Assembly (NCBI GenBank): GCA_964549075.1
Contig: CAZJUB010000077.1
Location: 1 to 12,273 of the forward strand
Source: an uncultured archaeon
Lineage (GTDB): Archaea > Asgardarchaeota > Heimdallarchaeia > Heimdallarchaeales > Heimdallarchaeaceae
DNA length: 12,273 bases
Direction of reading: 5' to 3'
Part shown: one piece after another, positions 2,031 through 12,257 of the stretch
How positions within the stretch are numbered: the first letter of the stretch is position 1
Layout of the letters: each line of letters begins with the position of its first letter
Notes under the pieces: model-generated
What the model was told of the DNA's origin: nothing
The model's input: the letters and a program-made list of their open reading frames with translations, nothing else
The model's database searches: none
Position numbers and translations under genes: made by a program

Positions 2031-2059
2031 GAGATTTGAATCATCTTTCTTCGAGTACT

Positions 2060-2818
2060 ATGAATTCATTCTTTCAGAAAATTAAATCTATCTTTATTTC
2101 AGAAGAAAAAAGATTCAATTCTACATTATTGGAAGAGCTAGAAATAAAAAATTTCATTAATATCAGAAAACTTGATTCTCAATTAAGTTTAGAAAAACGT
2201 TATGTTTGTATTAGAAAACTTCAGAATTCAGGAAAGATATCTGGAGTCTTTCTCTCAGATAAATCGTTTTTTTTCTCAATTTCAGATGAAGAACTAAGTG
2301 AAATTAGAAATTCTTTAAAGAAACAAGGACAAGTTGAATTATCTCCTCTCAAAGATCGATGGTCAATCAATGAAAAAACTTTAGTCCCCTTCCTAATGCA
2401 CCTAGAAAATGGTCTTATAGGTAATAACAAATTTTACTCTTTCACATTTCTTCAGAGGGAATTTGTTACTGTTCTCAAGAACGTTGAGGAATATAATTTA
2501 GAGGAGTTACAAAAAACTTACGGATTTAAACTAGAAGATATTTTAAATTTAGTTGGAAAGATAGTTGATGAGAAAGAACTTGATGGAGTTGTACAAAAAA
2601 AATACTTATACACTGGATTTAAACAGTTCGAAGAGATTGTCTCGGAATTTATCGAAGATAATTTCGAAGATTCTTTAGAAATGACCTTTGATTTCATATC
2701 AGATAAGTTAGAAATTTCTGAAAAAGATGCAGAAAGATTTTTGGTAAATTATGTGGAAAATAATCCACACAAATTAATTGTATATCCTCTAGAAAAGAAA
2801 ATCAAATTTAAAGGATAA
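2060..2818 (+). CDS. Tandem PCI-like winged-helix protein with DDRGK1/UFL1-like segments
   Basis: About four 55-60 aa WH-like units. 'IRKLQNSGKISGVFLSDKSFFFSISDEELSEIRNSLKKQGQVELSPL' resembles the DDRGK domain; 'KTYGFKLEDILNLVGKIVDEKELDGVV' resembles UFL1 WH repeats. Start moved from TTG 2036 to ATG 2060 because the TATA box ends only 5 nt before 2036. Confidence 0.65.
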   Translation: MNSFFQKIKSIFISEEKRFNSTLLEELEIKNFINIRKLDSQLSLEKRYVCIRKLQNSGKISGVFLSDKSFFFSISDEELSEIRNSLKKQGQVELSPLKDRWSINEKTLVPFLMHLENGLIGNNKFYSFTFLQREFVTVLKNVEEYNLEELQKTYGFKLEDILNLVGKIVDEKELDGVVQKKYLYTGFKQFEEIVSEFIEDNFEDSLEMTFDFISDKLEISEKDAERFLVNYVENNPHKLIVYPLEKKIKFKG

Positions 2819-2929: not shown

Positions 2930-3364
2930 ATGGTCAGAAAGTTACCGTGGTTATTCCCAGGAATAAGAAGACCCAGTTTCAGTTTACATCAAGTGTCTAT
3001 AAGAATTCCCACACGTATTCCTATAAGCGTTCTATATGTTATAATATATGGAATCATATTTTATATATTCGCAGGTGGAGCTTATATGTTAGTAAATAAG
3101 GATAATTTGATTAGTATTGGTCAAAATGCAGGCAATCCTCAATTTATAGCTCCTAATGTACATTTACAATATCTCATTGAAGGAATAGTAGCAGGCTTTA
3201 TCTTTGCATTTGCTGCGCTAAGTCTTTATCTCTTTGATCATGCTACACGATATGCCTTCGATGTAAGTAGCGCACAAAAAATCGAATTAATCGCAACAAT
3301 ACTTATCATTATATGGTATGTAGCCATTCTCCTATTATTCAGGGCGAAAACGACAACAGGATAG
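2930..3364 (+). CDS. Oligosaccharyltransferase subunit OSTC/DC2-like (OST3/OST6 family membrane domain)
   Basis: 144 aa with three hydrophobic helices. 'FAGGAYMLV', 'PQFIAPNVHLQYLIEGIVAGFIF' and C-terminal 'LLFRAK' parallel OSTC as recalled ('TGGIIYDVI', '[22 protein letters not shown]', 'VFMRMK'). Pro-rich N-terminus; no thioredoxin domain. Confidence 0.82.
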   Translation: MVRKLPWLFPGIRRPSFSLHQVSIRIPTRIPISVLYVIIYGIIFYIFAGGAYMLVNKDNLISIGQNAGNPQFIAPNVHLQYLIEGIVAGFIFAFAALSLYLFDHATRYAFDVSSAQKIELIATILIIIWYVAILLLFRAKTTTG

Positions 3365-5540: not shown

Positions 5541-6656
5541 ATGAATTGGGATAATATGAAAAACCATACAGTAGTATTAATTTTAATTAGTATGCTAGCT
5601 TTAACAAGTGTTCGACCTATATATTCAGCTACAGAGCCAATTGTTGAAAAAAAGGTTCTAGATTATGTTATTCTCTATGATGAGTCTCATGGACAATATT
5701 TCAATAGGACACTTATGACTACAGCTTTGGATTCCCTTTCTAATATTACTGTGCAAGATCCTGAAGTAGAAATTAGCATCGATATATTATTCCAAGAAAA
5801 TGGTACAAAATTTAATTCAACAAATTTGCAAGGTATTGATCTATTGATCATAACCAATCCTGGGATAGACAATGATTTTACAAATGCTGAAATCAATGCT
5901 ATTCTGGATTTTGTTGAACTAGGTGGTTCTTTATTCTTACTTAATAATCCTCTAACTCGAAGTGAAAATATAACTGGTCACACTGCCACTATGAACAACT
6001 TACTTTCATCAAGAAGCAATAGAATGACCTCTGCTAGATTTACATCCTGCACAGATCAAATCCACTCTCAAGTAATAATAGATGATTTCAACTCCACATA
6101 TGGTAATGATTCCTACATAACAATAAATGAATACAATACAACCAAAAACATACTTACCTCACAAATTAGTTATTTCTGGCAAGAAGTTGCAATTGATAAT
6201 GTTACAATATATTCAACTCCTATTACACTAGGAAATGAAAAATCAGATGATAATACTGATAACGTGGAATTAGGGAAAACTCTTTTTACTTCTTACTCTG
6301 TTGATGAAGACTATAGTATCTTCAGAAATACAGCTACTGGCTTTCTTACTTGGTTACTGAGTAAAGATTTAGGAAATTCAAGATTAATTATGTCTGGCTC
6401 TACAATCATGTTTAGTGATTATATTATCTCTGGAAATTCAACTTGGATTGAAGAGAATCAAAATCTTGATTTGTGGAAAAATCTGATTCTTTGGCTCTTA
6501 GAATATACTCCTCATCCAGTTAGAGAGCCACCAGCAATTTGGGTTTTTGAGAATTATGCGTTAGTTGTTGCAGCTCTCTCCATTGTAATCTTTGGTATTT
6601 CTATAATTATTTACAAATATCGTAACAAAAAACGATTATCAGTTAAAATACAATAA
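5541..6656 (+). CDS. Type I membrane glycoprotein with a GIFT (GldG/IFT52/DUF4350/Wbp1-like) domain
   Basis: Signal peptide ('KNHTVVLILISMLALTSV', start at 5541 or 5557 region), 'ILYDESHGQ', 'DLLIITNP', 'EINAILDFVELGGSLFLL', 'SRLIMSGSTIMFSD', 'QNLDLWKNLILWL', C-terminal TM helix and basic tail. Ten N-x-S/T sequons in the mature part. Confidence 0.75.
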   Translation: MNWDNMKNHTVVLILISMLALTSVRPIYSATEPIVEKKVLDYVILYDESHGQYFNRTLMTTALDSLSNITVQDPEVEISIDILFQENGTKFNSTNLQGIDLLIITNPGIDNDFTNAEINAILDFVELGGSLFLLNNPLTRSENITGHTATMNNLLSSRSNRMTSARFTSCTDQIHSQVIIDDFNSTYGNDSYITINEYNTTKNILTSQISYFWQEVAIDNVTIYSTPITLGNEKSDDNTDNVELGKTLFTSYSVDEDYSIFRNTATGFLTWLLSKDLGNSRLIMSGSTIMFSDYIISGNSTWIEENQNLDLWKNLILWLLEYTPHPVREPPAIWVFENYALVVAALSIVIFGISIIIYKYRNKKRLSVKIQ

Positions 6657-6733: not shown

Positions 6734-8008
6734 ATGAATGTTCAAGACGATACAGATGCTAGTTCTTATATTTCACAGTTAATTGATTCGTTACTAAGAG
6801 GTGAAATTAATCCTAGTGATTTTGGCATTGCAATTAACCACTTCTCTAAAACTATGACGAGAAATCTCTTTCGAGACAGTCTTCCTAGATTTTACTCAAA
6901 TTTACGGTCGAAAAGCACCACTGTCTTCATGCGCTATTTCTTCAATGATGCTGCATACCAAGATAATGATCTATGGAAATTCGTTGATTACAAGGATTTT
7001 TGGGTACAACTCCTTAATTTTCATGATACTGTTTATACTCGTGATATGACTCTAGTTGATGTGTTAAAATTCTTTGAAGAAAATCTTTTTTTCACTAATA
7101 ACCGACCTAATCTGAGTTATCTTGAGCAAAAGGTGATTGAACTGCTAGATCAACAACCTCATCTTCTAAACAAAGATTTAGCTAAAAAATTCAAAGTTTC
7201 TGAAAAAAAAATAAGTAATCTGATGGGTGAACTAAAAAATAAAGGAATCTGTTTAGGTTCTTCAGTGGATTATTTAGCTTTAGATCTCCACGAATTTTTC
7301 ATCTTTGGAAATAGCAGTTTACAGGATGATAGAGCAATCTTATTAAAGAAATATGTTTTATTTCCTGGTTTTACAATTACTTATGGAGTAGCTTCTGAGA
7401 AAATTAATGGCCCCTCAATTTATACTGTATTGAACAAGAAAATCTTGTGTAACACTAAAATTCTCACTATGGGGATCTCTTTAAAAGATTGGAGTAGCCA
7501 TCCTATAAGAAAACCAGAGGTGTCATTACCAGTAAAAGAACAGGAAAGAGCATCTTTCTATCTTACACCAGTAAGTAAAGATTACATACTACAATTAGTT
7601 CGAAATTGTGAAACTGATTTTAGGAGACCCAATATAAAGAAAATAGCAGATCGCTTTGATGTCTCCATTAGAACATTATTTAGAATAAAATCGAAATTAA
7701 AGGATGGGGGTATAATTGTCCCTAGGATTATTTTGGAGAATGAAGAATTAATGTCCTTATTCCTGATATCTGAAAAAGAACTTGTTGAGTTTTACAATAA
7801 GGTTCCTTACATCGAATCCTATGAAGTACAGGATAATGAAGGTAACATTAAATGGTTAACAATTTTATCTATTTTCCCAAATGATTTCAATTTTATATAT
7901 AAAAAAAACAATAAACTAGTAGACATCTTTCAAGTAATTGAAAAAACTATCCTCAATCAAATTATTCATAATGAAGAGACATTATTACAATTAAATCAAA
8001 AAATTTAA
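6734..8008 (+). CDS. Transcriptional regulator with two winged-HTH (Lrp/AsnC-like) modules
   Basis: HTH1 'LSYLEQKVIELLDQQPHLLNKDLAKKFKVSEKKISNLMGELKNKGI' followed by 'VDYLALDL' (Lrp-type linker); HTH2 'NIKKIADRFDVSIRTLFRIKSKLKDGGII'. Extra helical N-terminal domain of about 125 aa. Confidence 0.75.
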   Translation: MNVQDDTDASSYISQLIDSLLRGEINPSDFGIAINHFSKTMTRNLFRDSLPRFYSNLRSKSTTVFMRYFFNDAAYQDNDLWKFVDYKDFWVQLLNFHDTVYTRDMTLVDVLKFFEENLFFTNNRPNLSYLEQKVIELLDQQPHLLNKDLAKKFKVSEKKISNLMGELKNKGICLGSSVDYLALDLHEFFIFGNSSLQDDRAILLKKYVLFPGFTITYGVASEKINGPSIYTVLNKKILCNTKILTMGISLKDWSSHPIRKPEVSLPVKEQERASFYLTPVSKDYILQLVRNCETDFRRPNIKKIADRFDVSIRTLFRIKSKLKDGGIIVPRIILENEELMSLFLISEKELVEFYNKVPYIESYEVQDNEGNIKWLTILSIFPNDFNFIYKKNNKLVDIFQVIEKTILNQIIHNEETLLQLNQKI

Positions 8009-8034
8009 ACAACGAAAAAATGGATGTTTATTAT

Positions 8035-10155
8035 ATGTCAAGTCAACGTTCACTAAAAGAAATAATAGAAATAATCTCTTCAGAAACAAATCTTGGGAAA
8101 GAAGAGATTCATAAGCGTATAAATGATAAGATGGAAGAACTTGGAGAGTTTGTAACTGAACTAGGAGCAGCTCATATCGTTGCAAGAGAGATGAGTGTTG
8201 ACTTGTCTTCTGAACCACCAATTCAAGTACAATCTCAGTTGACAATTGATCAATTAACTCCTGAAATAACAAGTGTTAATGTACTTGGCAGGATTCTAAG
8301 AATCTACGATCAGTATACCTTTAAGAAAAAGGATGGTACTGATGGGATATTGCAATCAATTTTAATCGAAGATAAAACTGGTAAAGTAAGAGTCGTATTT
8401 TGGGATCAGATAGTCTCTGAGTTGCAAAACAAGAATGCTAAAGTTGGAGATCCAATCAGGATTCTAAACGGATACACAAAGCTTGGACGAGATCAATCAA
8501 TAGAAGTACATTTAGGAATACGAAGTCAGGTTCAAATCCGTCCTTCCGGAATTGACGATACCCAACTTCCTGAAGCTCAGTCAACGTTTGTTAAAATAAA
8601 AGACATCAAAGAAAATGAAATTGATTTGTCCTTACATGCAAAGATAACTCAGATGGATGATTTACTAGAGTTTGAAAGATCTGATGGAACTAAAGGAAGA
8701 AAAAAAGGGCTAATTGTAGGTGATGAAACCGGAGAGATTTCCATTAATTTATGGAACGAGAAAGTTGATATTGCTGACAATTTAGCTTTAGGTGATATAA
8801 TTGAAGTAGTAGGTTTGGCAGCTAAAGAGGGACTAAGAGGTTTTATAGAATTGCATTCAAGTAGATATACAAGCATCTCTAAACTTGATAATGTTGACGA
8901 TATTATCGTGAAAAAAGGCTTCATAGGATCAAGTGCTGGAGTTGATTCACAATTAATAACTATAGAAAATATCACTAGTATCGGCAATCTCATTTCTACT
9001 AAAGGTATTATTGTTAATATTGTTCCTATTCATGAATTTACCAGAGATGATGGTTCTCAAGGTAAAGTTAGAAACATCTCAATTTCGGATAATTCTGGCA
9101 TTATAAATGTGGTTTTATGGGATGACAAAACTCAATTGATTAAAACTGAAGACATAAATAAGCTTCTAATTATAAAAAATGGTTATACAAGAAAGGGAAG
9201 GAATGCTGATATCGAAATCCATTGTGGTAATCAAACAATTTTAGATATAAAATCCCCAGATTCTACCGATATAGAGCCACTTGAATTCGATTTTATAGAT
9301 ATCAAAAATATCTCTGATGATATGGAAGAAGTGCATGTACAAGGAGTGATAACTGATTTTTCAGCAGTTCAGGATATTGTTACAAAAAACAATGAAACTA
9401 TTCAATTGAGGAATCTTAGAATTGAAGATCAAACTGCTTCTATCCGTATAACAAGTTGGAGAGATAATGTATCAAAACTTACAGGACTAGCTGTGGGTGA
9501 TACTATAGAACTTTTCAATGCTGCGGTAAAAGAAGATACTGGTTATGGTTTAGAACTACTAATTACACGGAATACCATTGTAAAAAAATCTTCATCTAGT
9601 TCCTCTAATCCTCAAGGATTTGTCTCAAGTTTAACTGTTTCGCCTAAGGAAACCAATCTTGAAAAACTCAAGGATATTGAAGATATAGAAGAAGGTGATG
9701 AGGTTACTATACAAGCAACTGTTATTAAATTAATCGAGAAACAATTTGTGTATCCTTTGTGTCCTGAATGTAAGAAAAAGGTAAAAAAGGAAAATTCTGA
9801 CTATATCTGTTCAGAACATGGAAAAGTAGATGATCCTTTAAATAGAATTCTATTTACATTTATAGCTAATGATGGTACTGGAAATATCAATGTACTTTGT
9901 GCTGGAAAATTAGCTGAAATTGTTTTAGGCGTTTCTGCTGATGATGCAGCACGAATGGTAGAGGAGAGTGAATCAGATAAAGCTCCTTACAATTATCTTA
10001 AATCAAAGAACTTCGTTAATTCAGAACTTATAATAAGTGGTAAAGTCAATAAGAATACTTATCTAGATAGCCTAGAAATAATCGCAAACTCCATTGAAAC
10101 AGTGAAATACTCTGAAGCTACCAAGACAATGATAAATCAAATACATACCAATTAA
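8035..10155 (+). CDS. rpa: Replication protein A large subunit (DUF2240-like N-terminus, five OB folds, zinc finger)
   Basis: N-terminal 'GEFVTELGAAHIVAREM'; repeated OB motifs 'IEDKTGKVRVVFWD', 'VGDETGEISINLWN', 'ISDNSGIINVVLWD', 'IEDQTASIRITSWR', 'ANDGTGNINVLCAG'; zinc ligands 'CPEC...CSEH'. ATG 8035 is preferred over 8020 because TTTAAA at 8004-8009 lies about 26 nt upstream. Confidence 0.93.
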   Translation: MSSQRSLKEIIEIISSETNLGKEEIHKRINDKMEELGEFVTELGAAHIVAREMSVDLSSEPPIQVQSQLTIDQLTPEITSVNVLGRILRIYDQYTFKKKDGTDGILQSILIEDKTGKVRVVFWDQIVSELQNKNAKVGDPIRILNGYTKLGRDQSIEVHLGIRSQVQIRPSGIDDTQLPEAQSTFVKIKDIKENEIDLSLHAKITQMDDLLEFERSDGTKGRKKGLIVGDETGEISINLWNEKVDIADNLALGDIIEVVGLAAKEGLRGFIELHSSRYTSISKLDNVDDIIVKKGFIGSSAGVDSQLITIENITSIGNLISTKGIIVNIVPIHEFTRDDGSQGKVRNISISDNSGIINVVLWDDKTQLIKTEDINKLLIIKNGYTRKGRNADIEIHCGNQTILDIKSPDSTDIEPLEFDFIDIKNISDDMEEVHVQGVITDFSAVQDIVTKNNETIQLRNLRIEDQTASIRITSWRDNVSKLTGLAVGDTIELFNAAVKEDTGYGLELLITRNTIVKKSSSSSSNPQGFVSSLTVSPKETNLEKLKDIEDIEEGDEVTIQATVIKLIEKQFVYPLCPECKKKVKKENSDYICSEHGKVDDPLNRILFTFIANDGTGNINVLCAGKLAEIVLGVSADDAARMVEESESDKAPYNYLKSKNFVNSELIISGKVNKNTYLDSLEIIANSIETVKYSEATKTMINQIHTN

Positions 10156-10177
10156 GAAAGGCGGTTTTGCAATGGGT

Positions 10178-10194
10178 CGAAAAGCTTATTAATA
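10178..10194 (+). promoter_or_regulatory. BRE/TATA promoter of the OST4-like microgene
   Basis: CGAAAAG-CTTATTAATA, a near-consensus archaeal promoter about 28-30 nt before ATG 10222. Confidence 0.7.
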
Positions 10195-10221
10195 AACAAG
10201 AAACTGCTTCAAACGAATAAC

Positions 10222-10332
10222 ATGGATTTCATCGCAATAAGAACTATAGCTATAATTATTATAATCGTGGCAATAATTTTTGCTCTCTTCTATCATGCTT
10301 TTAGTGTTGGTAAAGAAGAAGAAACCACATAA
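10222..10332 (+). CDS. OST4-like 36-aa single-TM microprotein (not in the ORF track)
   Basis: Translates to MDFIAIRTIAIIIIIVAIIFALFYHAFSVGKEEETT*. One TM helix ending in 'YHA', own promoter, and a stop 2 nt from the convergent gene's stop. Length and YH position match Ost4 as recalled. Confidence 0.75.
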   Translation: MDFIAIRTIAIIIIIVAIIFALFYHAFSVGKEEETT

Positions 10333-10334
10333 TT

Positions 10335-12257
10335 CTATATTTCTAGTATCATGCCTTTCCTCTTGTTGTAGATTTTAATTCCTATTGTTAGTATTACTAA
10401 AAGCACACTAGTTGTTATAGCTACAGGAATTATAATATTCGTAAACGAATTACTATTAGAATTTCTACTGCCTACCAAATCAAAGACCAAAATACTACCT
10501 TGTAAAATATCTAAATTAGTAAAGTATGCATATAGACTTGTTACTTCTAATTTGTGTTGCTCAGTAACGTCTCTTTGATTATTTATTATAAGGCTCCAGT
10601 CATACTTGGAGGCGCTATAACTCTCATTGAAGCGATAAATAATAGAGAGATTAGTATATTGTTTTGTATCAGATGTTATTACAAAATGAACCATAATTTC
10701 GCCATCGGTTTCTTCATCAGTTACTTCTAATTCAGGTCCTTCTGTTATAACTATTAATTTGTGATCATCTGTCTCTTCGTTTGCTTGTACTTGCCAGTAA
10801 AATGAATTAGAATCCCACATTACTGGAATTCTTAAATCTGGAGTTTCTATGTATGCATCTAATATTGGAACCATTTCCTCATCAATTCTGTATGTCCATC
10901 TATCGTGACTTATTGAATAATTTATATCATACACTAAAGTTATGTTTGTTGAGATGAGAACATCATCAATACTTCTTTTCGCTCCTACAAGACTATTTTC
11001 AAATTCTATTTCAAAGTTCTCTCTACTTACTATTTGTGTTACTTTGAATAAGGTGCAAGTTATGTTTATGAATAGCTCATCTAAAGGCAATTCTATAATA
11101 AATGAATATAACCCATTTAGTTCTGTTATACCAGTTTTTTGGATGTCTTGATTTATCTCTACAGTAATGGGTGCATATCCAACGGGTTGTCCACTTGATG
11201 TAATATTGAAACTTAAAATATATTCAGCTTGATTCTTATATGGTTCATAATTAAAATCAATGACAATACTACTTTCCTCAATGGTAATATTAACTGATTT
11301 TGATATGCTTGAATGAGTTAGAGATTGTGCTGTAATAACTAGGAGATATTCGCTTTTTGTAAGATAGAACGATGAAAGGTAAATAAAGTAATCTCCATTC
11401 TGCTCAATTGCGGGGATTATCTCCCCTTCAAGATTTGCTTCAACTATTGCATTCTCTATTTCTACATATGGATCTAAAGTCTCGTAGCTTACCCTAATCT
11501 CTTTCATTGCATATTTTGGAATGTTGATTTGTTCCTCAACAGTCATCACTGCAGGTTTTCTTAGAAGGTTTATTGTATCATTTTTATACCCTATGAGGTT
11601 ACCATCGAATATTAACAATGTTATATCTATTATTCCATCTGAAATATAAGGAGGAAACAAAAAAGATATGCTATCATTATTTAGTTCACAGGTTATACCT
11701 ATTACCTCACCTGTATCCCAAAATATGTAGATAGAAGGATTTGATGTAGGATTTTGGAATAAAAGTGAAGCATTTAGAGTTTCAAAAATTACTGTGTTCT
11801 CATACTCTACATCCAAAATATAGTTATTTATTGCAAAATCACATTGAATAGATGTAAAAGGTTCTTGTCTAAGAAGTAAAAGTCTTTTGTAACCATTACC
11901 CAAGTCATTATCTGAAATAACATTAGCACCTATAAGGTTATCAAAATTCAGCCAAACATCCGGGTATGTTATGTTGATGTTATTAATTAACGTATTTAGA
12001 TTAAGCATATTTATCGAATACAAGATTGTGGTTTGATTGTAAAACTCAATTTGCTTTGTACATGTTATTTCAACAATTCCAATTAATCTCATCGAATAGT
12101 TACCTGTAATTGTTCTAGTTGAATTATTATTCCAAAGAATATCATATTAAACTTGTGAATCTTCAACATAAATTATTGCATCAATATATACCGTCCCTGG
12201 TCCTAAAGAAACTACTTGTATGTCATTTATTACATTTATACCAGTATGGCTGAGGTA
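10335..12257 (-). CDS. Large beta-rich surface/extracellular glycoprotein with C-terminal TM anchor; 5'-incomplete or interrupted
   Basis: Ig-like strand patterns, about a dozen sequons, S/N linker, TM helix 'IIIPVAITTSVLLVILTIGI' and basic tail. The ORF-track start at 12092 has no signal peptide. The same frame continues upstream through one TAA (12147-12149) to a TGA at 12258-12260. Confidence 0.7.

Follow-up and report, generated by a model that had tools for sequence, protein, structure and literature searches.

Does a 36-codon open reading frame (ORF), lodged between two far larger genes of an Asgard archaeon, encode a counterpart of Ost4, the smallest subunit of oligosaccharyltransferase (OST), which in yeast holds Stt3 and Ost3/6 together (OST subcomplex II, Stt3-Ost4-Ost3/6)? 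The question is raised by a 12,273-nt stretch of DNA (contig CAZJUB010000077.1; hereafter the window), in which the ORF runs from ATG to TAA at 10222..10332 on the + strand and is a candidate for an Ost4-like single-pass membrane microprotein of STT3/AglB. It had been pointed out in a first-pass annotation made from the letters alone, and its coordinates and 36-residue translation proved to be exactly as quoted there. Based on the intact reading frame, the pattern of selection, family alignments and predicted docking, we read the ORF product as the Ost4 counterpart, a subunit that would bind STT3 between its first and last transmembrane (TM) helices, with a probability of roughly 0.6.

Conservation and selection within the genus

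A six-frame search found the ORF intact in 23 of the 24 other genomes of the genus, free of internal stops and with 62-89% identity (E 1.7e-15 to 1.2e-10). Neither STT3 nor the OST48-like gene is detectable in the sole genome lacking it (G015, 82% complete), which is therefore probably merely incomplete. Selection was evaluated with the Nei-Gojobori method on the first 34 codons of 24 sequences (the window genome and the 23 others), pooling 276 pairs that are not independent of each other. In the frame of the ORF, the proportions of synonymous (pS) and nonsynonymous (pN) differences were 0.61 and 0.14, respectively, corresponding to a dN/dS of 0.125. Values in the five other frames ranged from 0.43 to 2.23, those of the antisense frames from 0.43 to 1.8. 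Variable sites at codon positions 1, 2 and 3 numbered 16, 10 and 32 of 34. Twenty-one of the 24 sequences share the stretch F-A-L-F-Y-H-A-F-S without change, and the remaining three have Gly for Ala. The ORF is a genuine gene under purifying selection, and the check on conservation and dN/dS proposed in the first-pass annotation thus turned out in its favor, both ORF and motif being kept among relatives. An antisense ORF of 35 aa (10189..10296) was rejected on the basis of dN/dS by frame, as a mirror of the real one.

The small ORF also persists independently of its genus neighbors. The flanking genes, encoding an RPA-like and a 585-aa protein, are found at all 24 genus loci and at none of seven loci from other genera, where the small ORF is still present.

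A promoter-like element upstream of the ORF

A 17-nt element resembling a B recognition element (BRE) and TATA box, TCGAAAAGCTTATTAAT (10177..10193, +), is located at -45 to -29 from the ATG and contains a TATA-like octamer at 10186-10193 (+). The string CGAAAAGCTTATTAA, on which the claim of an own promoter had been based, begins at 10178 as stated. When the upstream sequences of the 24 genus loci were aligned on the ATG, the element was identical in 23 loci and carried one substitution in the other (L018), and its distance from the ATG was constant while the remaining spacer largely diverged. Nearly the same element, GAAA(A/T)GCTTATTAA, is kept in three other genera of the same family, and in most copies from more distant genomes an A/T-rich sequence resembling a TATA box is found 30-40 nt upstream. 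This conservation lends support to the own promoter, and we read the 17-nt element as a BRE plus TATA box with a putative promoter function. As transcription from archaeal promoters starts about 25 nt downstream of the TATA center, the leader would comprise only a few nucleotides. The transcription start region may be marked by a short box between the TATA-like element and the ATG, CTTCAA (10207..10212, +), which emerged from right-aligned upstream sequences. The box is unchanged in 18 of the 24 genus loci and differs by one base in the other six, three of which have CTTCAC and three CCTCAA.

In 7 of the 24 genus loci (L024-L026, L006, L017, L020-L021), the conserved start is preceded, at a distance of 3 to 25 codons, by another in-frame ATG, and some database entries use longer forms of 42-62 aa that begin at upstream ATGs. 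The 36-codon start is favored over these because the promoter spacing is conserved.

Family range and peptide architecture

Weak matches of the initial search in other genera proved to be small ORFs of the same design. At the seven loci fetched outside the genus the frame is open throughout, with 25-38% identity, and an (L/A)-Y-H core followed by an acidic tail is found in all of them. When 301 genomes of the phylum were searched with a profile built from 21 family members (A1), 59 had a match at E ≤ 0.01. Leaving out the window's own genome, matches were obtained in 42 of 43 genomes of the order (four families together), in 4 of 11 genomes of a sister family in the same class (f6), in none of the 21 genomes of another family of that class (f5) and in 12 of the 225 remaining genomes of the phylum. 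In a non-Asgard archaeal phylum, the same profile found matches in 4 genomes out of 301 (best E 3.2e-4). Given this background, the matches in the order and in f6 are regarded as real and the 12 scattered ones as not clearly above background. The family is order-wide. Because the scattered matches lie near background, three members (L091, L094 and L051) were treated as doubtful; they are nonetheless rows in alignments A3 and A6.

Length varies from 34 to 38 residues among the 22 secure members, each of which contains one uninterrupted hydrophobic stretch. Alignment A3 (25 rows, including the three doubtful ones) shows no gaps in the core. All its rows share His25 and at least 90% of them Leu22, and the His is preceded by Tyr or Phe in every row except one doubtful one. 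This aromatic-His pair, at residues 24-25 or 25-26, follows without gaps and at a fixed spacing from an N-terminal Asp/Asn; at position 2-3, 16 of the 22 secure members have Asp or Glu and 5 have Asn. The tail after the His carries a net charge of -1 to -7 in all 22, while the N-terminal segment is about neutral. Likenesses to eukaryotic Ost4/OST4 (Pfam PF10215) are the family length, the single TM helix and the aromatic-His pair near residue 25, the Tyr-His of the PF10215 model being located at positions 25-26 of 34, as deduced from seven sub-threshold matches and one Pfam alignment. The Ost4-like design that had been proposed therefore stands in size, single hydrophobic helix and place of the aromatic-His pair, but not in its tail, which is acidic rather than basic.

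Two of the doubtful members, from other Asgard families, have L-Y-H at the helix end followed by Lys/Arg-rich tails (L091:277-417, +, 47 aa; L051:1459-1587, +, 43 aa). They are possible basic-tailed variants of an Ost4-like protein, but their matches are at background level.

The small gene is missing from the gene calls of the window genome, and the exact window protein is absent from a collection of 15 billion proteins. The expectation that gene callers would miss it is borne out in this respect, but not for the family at large, as 22 relatives of 28-62 residues have been called in this large database, all unnamed or 'hypothetical protein' and none with a Pfam domain. A search of the ESM Atlas was uninformative, the top score of 0.79 leading to unnamed clusters. 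With the family unannotated in public protein sets, a profile such as A3 would let annotators detect its members.

Predicted docking of the peptide on STT3

The window's genome encodes a single STT3 of 759 aa (170.9 bits), with a WWDYG motif starting at residue 541. Complex prediction with matched 19-genome alignments of STT3 (A4) and the peptide (A5) yielded an ipSAE of 0.76 (0.76, 0.76 and 0.77 in the individual runs), compared with 0.00 for the best of three controls; replacing STT3 by an unrelated 729-residue protein gave 0.00. The score mark is reached by 58 of 80 solved complexes and by 2 of 110 mismatched pairs, counts that are only a rough guide here, own alignments having been used. 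At least 92% of the contacts agreed between runs, and the pLDDT of the partner was at least 82.

The confident contacts fall on STT3 residues 29-55, 157-169, 438-449 and 474-493. According to a hydropathy scan of STT3, its first TM helix spans about 36-54 and its last about 471-489, so that contacts 29-55 cover the first TM helix and contacts 474-493 the last, residues 438-449 forming the loop between the last two helices. On both helices the peptide numbers fall as the STT3 numbers rise. The peptide is therefore predicted to run antiparallel to both, which would put its N-terminus outside and its C-terminus, with Tyr-His and tail, in the cytoplasm. In the model, the invariant Leu22 pairs with the invariant Tyr474 of STT3, and the conserved residues of the family lie at the helix end predicted to be cytosolic.

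For eukaryotic Ost4, a review puts the site in these words: 'Ost4 is nestled between TMH1 and TMH13 of Stt3'. It adds that the Stt3-Ost4-Ost3 subcomplex is disrupted when charged residues replace those at Ost4 positions 18-24 (PMC7226087). The validated topology of Ost4 is Nout-Cin (PMC3687696). According to both papers, the crucial conserved residues of Ost4 are at the cytosolic helix end (PMC3687696; PMC7226087), as they are predicted to be in the archaeal peptide. The part of Ost4 described by Dumax-Vorzet et al. is the invariant part of the archaeal peptide. The groove predicted for the peptide, flanked by the first and last TM helix of STT3, matches the site published for Ost4, and the predicted N-out/C-in orientation likewise agrees with the published one. 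Docking to the genome's own STT3, which the first-pass annotation had named as a check, was thus predicted at the Ost4 site and in the Ost4 orientation.

We propose that this 36-residue single-pass membrane protein acts as an Ost4-type accessory subunit of the archaeal OST. It would be transcribed from its own BRE/TATA promoter into a nearly leaderless mRNA and inserted with its N-terminus outside, leaving the Tyr-His and the acidic tail in the cytoplasm. Wedged between the first and the last TM helix of STT3/AglB, the peptide would stabilize STT3 and help form the surface that seats an OSTC/Ost3-like subunit, as Ost4 does in yeast and mammals. Binding site and orientation are predictions of the structural model; STT3 stabilization, recruitment of the OSTC-like protein and common descent with eukaryotic Ost4 are suggested by analogy with the eukaryotic enzyme.

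Alternative explanations

Several results weigh against an Ost4-type subunit, foremost those of the sequence comparisons. With the Pfam profile of Ost4 (PF10215; gathering cut-off 25 bits, model length 34), the window ORF gave no match at E ≤ 1, and only 1 of 21 family members was matched, at E 0.044. There was no match in nine of ten divergent members, the tenth, a doubtful one, scoring 11.9 bits (E 0.21). A six-frame scan of the window's genome with this profile found nothing at the ORF. None of 301 Asgard genomes contained a match above the cut-off, and the sub-threshold six-frame matches were mostly noise, several of them with internal stops. The search with the Ost4 profile that had been put forward as a first check was therefore negative. 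Profiles A1 and A3 and one single sequence retrieved no OST4 chain from the PDB sequences at E ≤ 10, in a copy that includes the human OST-A complex 6s7o. Statistical sequence homology to Ost4 was not obtained, and the family, unlike eukaryotic Ost4, stays below the Pfam cut-off. A further difference from Ost4 is the Ile/Val-rich helix of the archaeal family.

The only PDB matches of the family profiles were helices of the PetM, PsbT and Ycf12 type. The microsubunits PsbT, Ycf12/Psb30 and PetM are of similar length and likewise have a hydrophobic helix, but at E 1 to 9 the matches cover the hydrophobic stretch only, never the Tyr-His or the tail, and these proteins belong to photosynthetic complexes, of which no sign was seen in the window. 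These matches were dismissed as compositional.

The docking result calls for caution as well. The score may come from the model's memory, since Stt3-Ost4 complexes have already been solved, and the two decoy partners, which folded poorly (pLDDT 24 and 45), leave room for any hydrophobic helix to be placed in the groove. The predicted interface on STT3 has a mean identity of 0.66, whereas the other residues of these segments average 0.66 and residues 1-495 average 0.70; 5 of the 37 interface residues are invariant. Being no more conserved than its neighbors, the interface gives no support. With an acidic tail and a nearly neutral N-terminal segment, the peptide does not obtain support for N-out/C-in from the positive-inside rule by itself. 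Moreover, the gene is unlinked to STT3, lying about 36 kb from it in G030, and its neighbors outside the genus (genes for a NYN RNase, an EXPERA protein, a D12 methylase, a cytidylyltransferase, TetR and ArsR regulators and a prolyl oligopeptidase) are unrelated to glycosylation.

The explanation that fares best besides an Ost4-type subunit draws on most of these points. The ORF could encode a genuine membrane microprotein unrelated to OST, either a small subunit or regulator of another complex or a membrane-active peptide. In addition to the failure of every sequence method to return a significant Ost4 match, the missing linkage to STT3 and an interface that is not especially conserved, this would account for the weak Pfam matches, which go to generic single-helix families, such as FeoB_associated in 12 of 21 members (best E 0.0008). 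It would leave unexplained why the complex with STT3 scores 0.76 while that with the unrelated 729-residue protein scores 0.00, why predicted site and orientation coincide with those published for Ost4 and why the aromatic-His pair stands at its position in the Ost4 model. Within the genus, moreover, the small ORF has an OST48-like gene at a distance of about 4.6 kb and an OSTC-like gene at about 6.9 kb. As for a membrane-active peptide, the gene is single-copy, is conserved across the order and encodes an acidic tail, while small membrane toxins usually have basic ones. We therefore consider an unrelated microprotein unlikely.

Alternatively, the peptide might bind the STT3 groove without being homologous to Ost4, as a lineage-specific helix that converged on the site and on the Tyr-His anchor. 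A hydrophobic helix of 36 residues holds little phylogenetic signal, all tests of sequence homology failed, and the family is securely seen only in one order and a sister family. The chemistry of the tail is opposite to that of vertebrate OST4, whose C-terminus is described as basic and of KKXX type (PMC3687696). The same paper describes the eukaryotic OST4 tail as poorly conserved, which weakens the objection raised by the acidic tail. Convergence would also have to produce the same length, a spacing between the N-terminal acidic or polar residue and Tyr-His within one residue of that in the Ost4 model, and the same predicted orientation, in a genome that encodes other eukaryotic-type OST accessory subunits. 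Homology of Asgard Ost4 candidates was, furthermore, inferred from profile-profile searches by Eme et al. (2023). On balance, convergence appears more improbable still than an unrelated microprotein.

Finally, the ORF could have arisen by chance and owe its conservation to something non-coding, such as a promoter, a terminator or a small RNA. Taken alone, it is not beyond chance: when the 179-nt spacer was shuffled 5000 times by mononucleotides, 407 shuffles contained a complete ATG-initiated ORF of at least 36 codons, and an AT-rich genome (~31% G+C) favors Ile/Phe/Leu-rich frames. A chance ORF is nevertheless effectively refuted by the codon-position pattern, with a dN/dS of 0.125 at a near-saturated pS, third positions varying at nearly every codon, higher dN/dS in the antisense frames, and a frame and motif retained in 23 of 24 other genus genomes and at all seven loci from other genera, where no neighbors are shared.

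Relation to previous work

Asgard homologues of Ost2, Ost4, Ost5, Swp1 and Wbp1 have been reported, with Ost4 and Ost5 in most Asgard classes; they were identified with HHblits in profile-profile searches that were curated manually and followed no fixed cut-offs (Eme et al. 2023, PMC10307638). The present family is the obvious candidate for the Ost4 entry in this order and may be the very one listed there. Since an Asgard Ost4 has thus been published, the gain is one of detail rather than of kind, and the novelty of the microprotein was overstated in the first-pass annotation. What the main text of that study does not give, in its available part, are sequence features, a binding site or a promoter. 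Literature searches found no other paper treating an archaeal Ost4; in the accessible text of a 2026 bioRxiv preprint, all matches to 'ost4' were to 'OST48'.

Other OST subunits encoded in the genome

An OSTC-like gene some 7 kb from the small ORF had been noted, and its presence is confirmed. A 144-aa OSTC/DC2-like protein is encoded at 2930..3364 (+). It matches Pfam OST3_OST6 with 28.6 bits (cut-off 27) over profile positions 183-289 of 294 and corresponds to the membrane part of Ost3/6, and its best match among solved structures is human OSTC (6s7o_H, E 0.0013, residues 25-137 versus 26-132 of 149). Directly upstream of this gene, a 260-aa protein (2036..2818, +) matches Pfam DDRGK (32.9 bits, cut-off 27.8) and E3_UFM1_ligase (27.9 bits, cut-off 23.2) and represents a UFMylation-type eukaryotic signature protein. 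The assignment of the organism to the Asgard archaea was deduced from this DDRGK/UFL1-like gene together with the OSTC-like, OST48-like and ribophorin I genes.

Closer to the small ORF, the gene at 5541..6656 (+) encodes an OST48/Wbp1-like type-I membrane protein of 371 aa, with a signal-peptide-like N-terminus, a C-terminal TM helix and a basic tail. The assignment is based on a weak match to Pfam OST48_N (E 0.066) and on fold matches. With an AlphaFold2 model of moderate confidence (mean pLDDT 63.6), the top three fold matches were to a chain of 410-411 residues in human OST structures (8b6l_N, 6s7o_G and 6s7t_G; E 2.3e-6 to 8.8e-6, TM-score about 0.4), ranking ahead of IFT52 GIFT domains. 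From its length, this chain is presumably OST48. Of 41 relatives, 38 have the OST48-like gene; G034 carries it on the STT3 contig, some 5 kb away from STT3.

Ribophorin I is encoded elsewhere in the window's genome (63.4 bits, above the cut-off), and neither DAD/Ost2 nor Ost5 was found by Pfam at E ≤ 0.1 in this genome, which is 89.7% complete. The multi-subunit OST postulated earlier is consequently backed by genes for STT3 and OSTC-like, OST48-like and ribophorin I subunits, but not by DAD/Ost2 or Ost5. We see a real, if less than even, chance that STT3, the Ost4-like peptide, the OSTC-like and OST48-like proteins and ribophorin I come together in the archaeal cell membrane as a true multi-subunit OST, and that the Ost4 groove of STT3 predates eukaryotes. 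The invariant His and acidic cytoplasmic tail would then constitute an ancestral or lineage-specific module, later replaced in eukaryotes by a basic/KKXX-type tail, which might, for instance, make contact with the translocon or the ribosome. An archaeal multi-subunit OST bears on the origin of eukaryotic N-glycosylation and of the translocon machinery, and naming the peptide in the Ost4 role, together with its site on STT3, would permit such a complex to be reconstituted and studied.

Genes flanking the small ORF

The 179-nt spacer occupied by the small ORF separates two long genes in a window that is itself AT-rich (~31% G+C). Upstream, at 8020..10155 (+), a 711-aa RPA-like protein is encoded, to which Pfam assigns several OB-fold families (four-OB-fold) and Rep_fac-A_C. 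Downstream, the convergent 585-aa ORF (10335..12092, - strand) ends 2 nt from the stop of the small ORF, which confirms the tail-to-tail packing described earlier. The 585-aa protein has a C-terminal TM anchor, matched no Pfam family and evolves fast, with 36-75% identity within the genus as against 53-83% for the RPA-like protein; it may be a glycosylated surface protein. It contains 12 N-x-S/T sequons, compared with 7.4 expected from its composition.

The RPA-like gene is preceded by a gene for a 424-aa protein (6734..8008, +) with winged-helix domains, including a weak match to the archaeal MCM winged helix, which ends 11 nt before the RPA-like start. Wherever a genus locus extends sufficiently far in the upstream direction, the winged-helix and RPA-like genes are found together.

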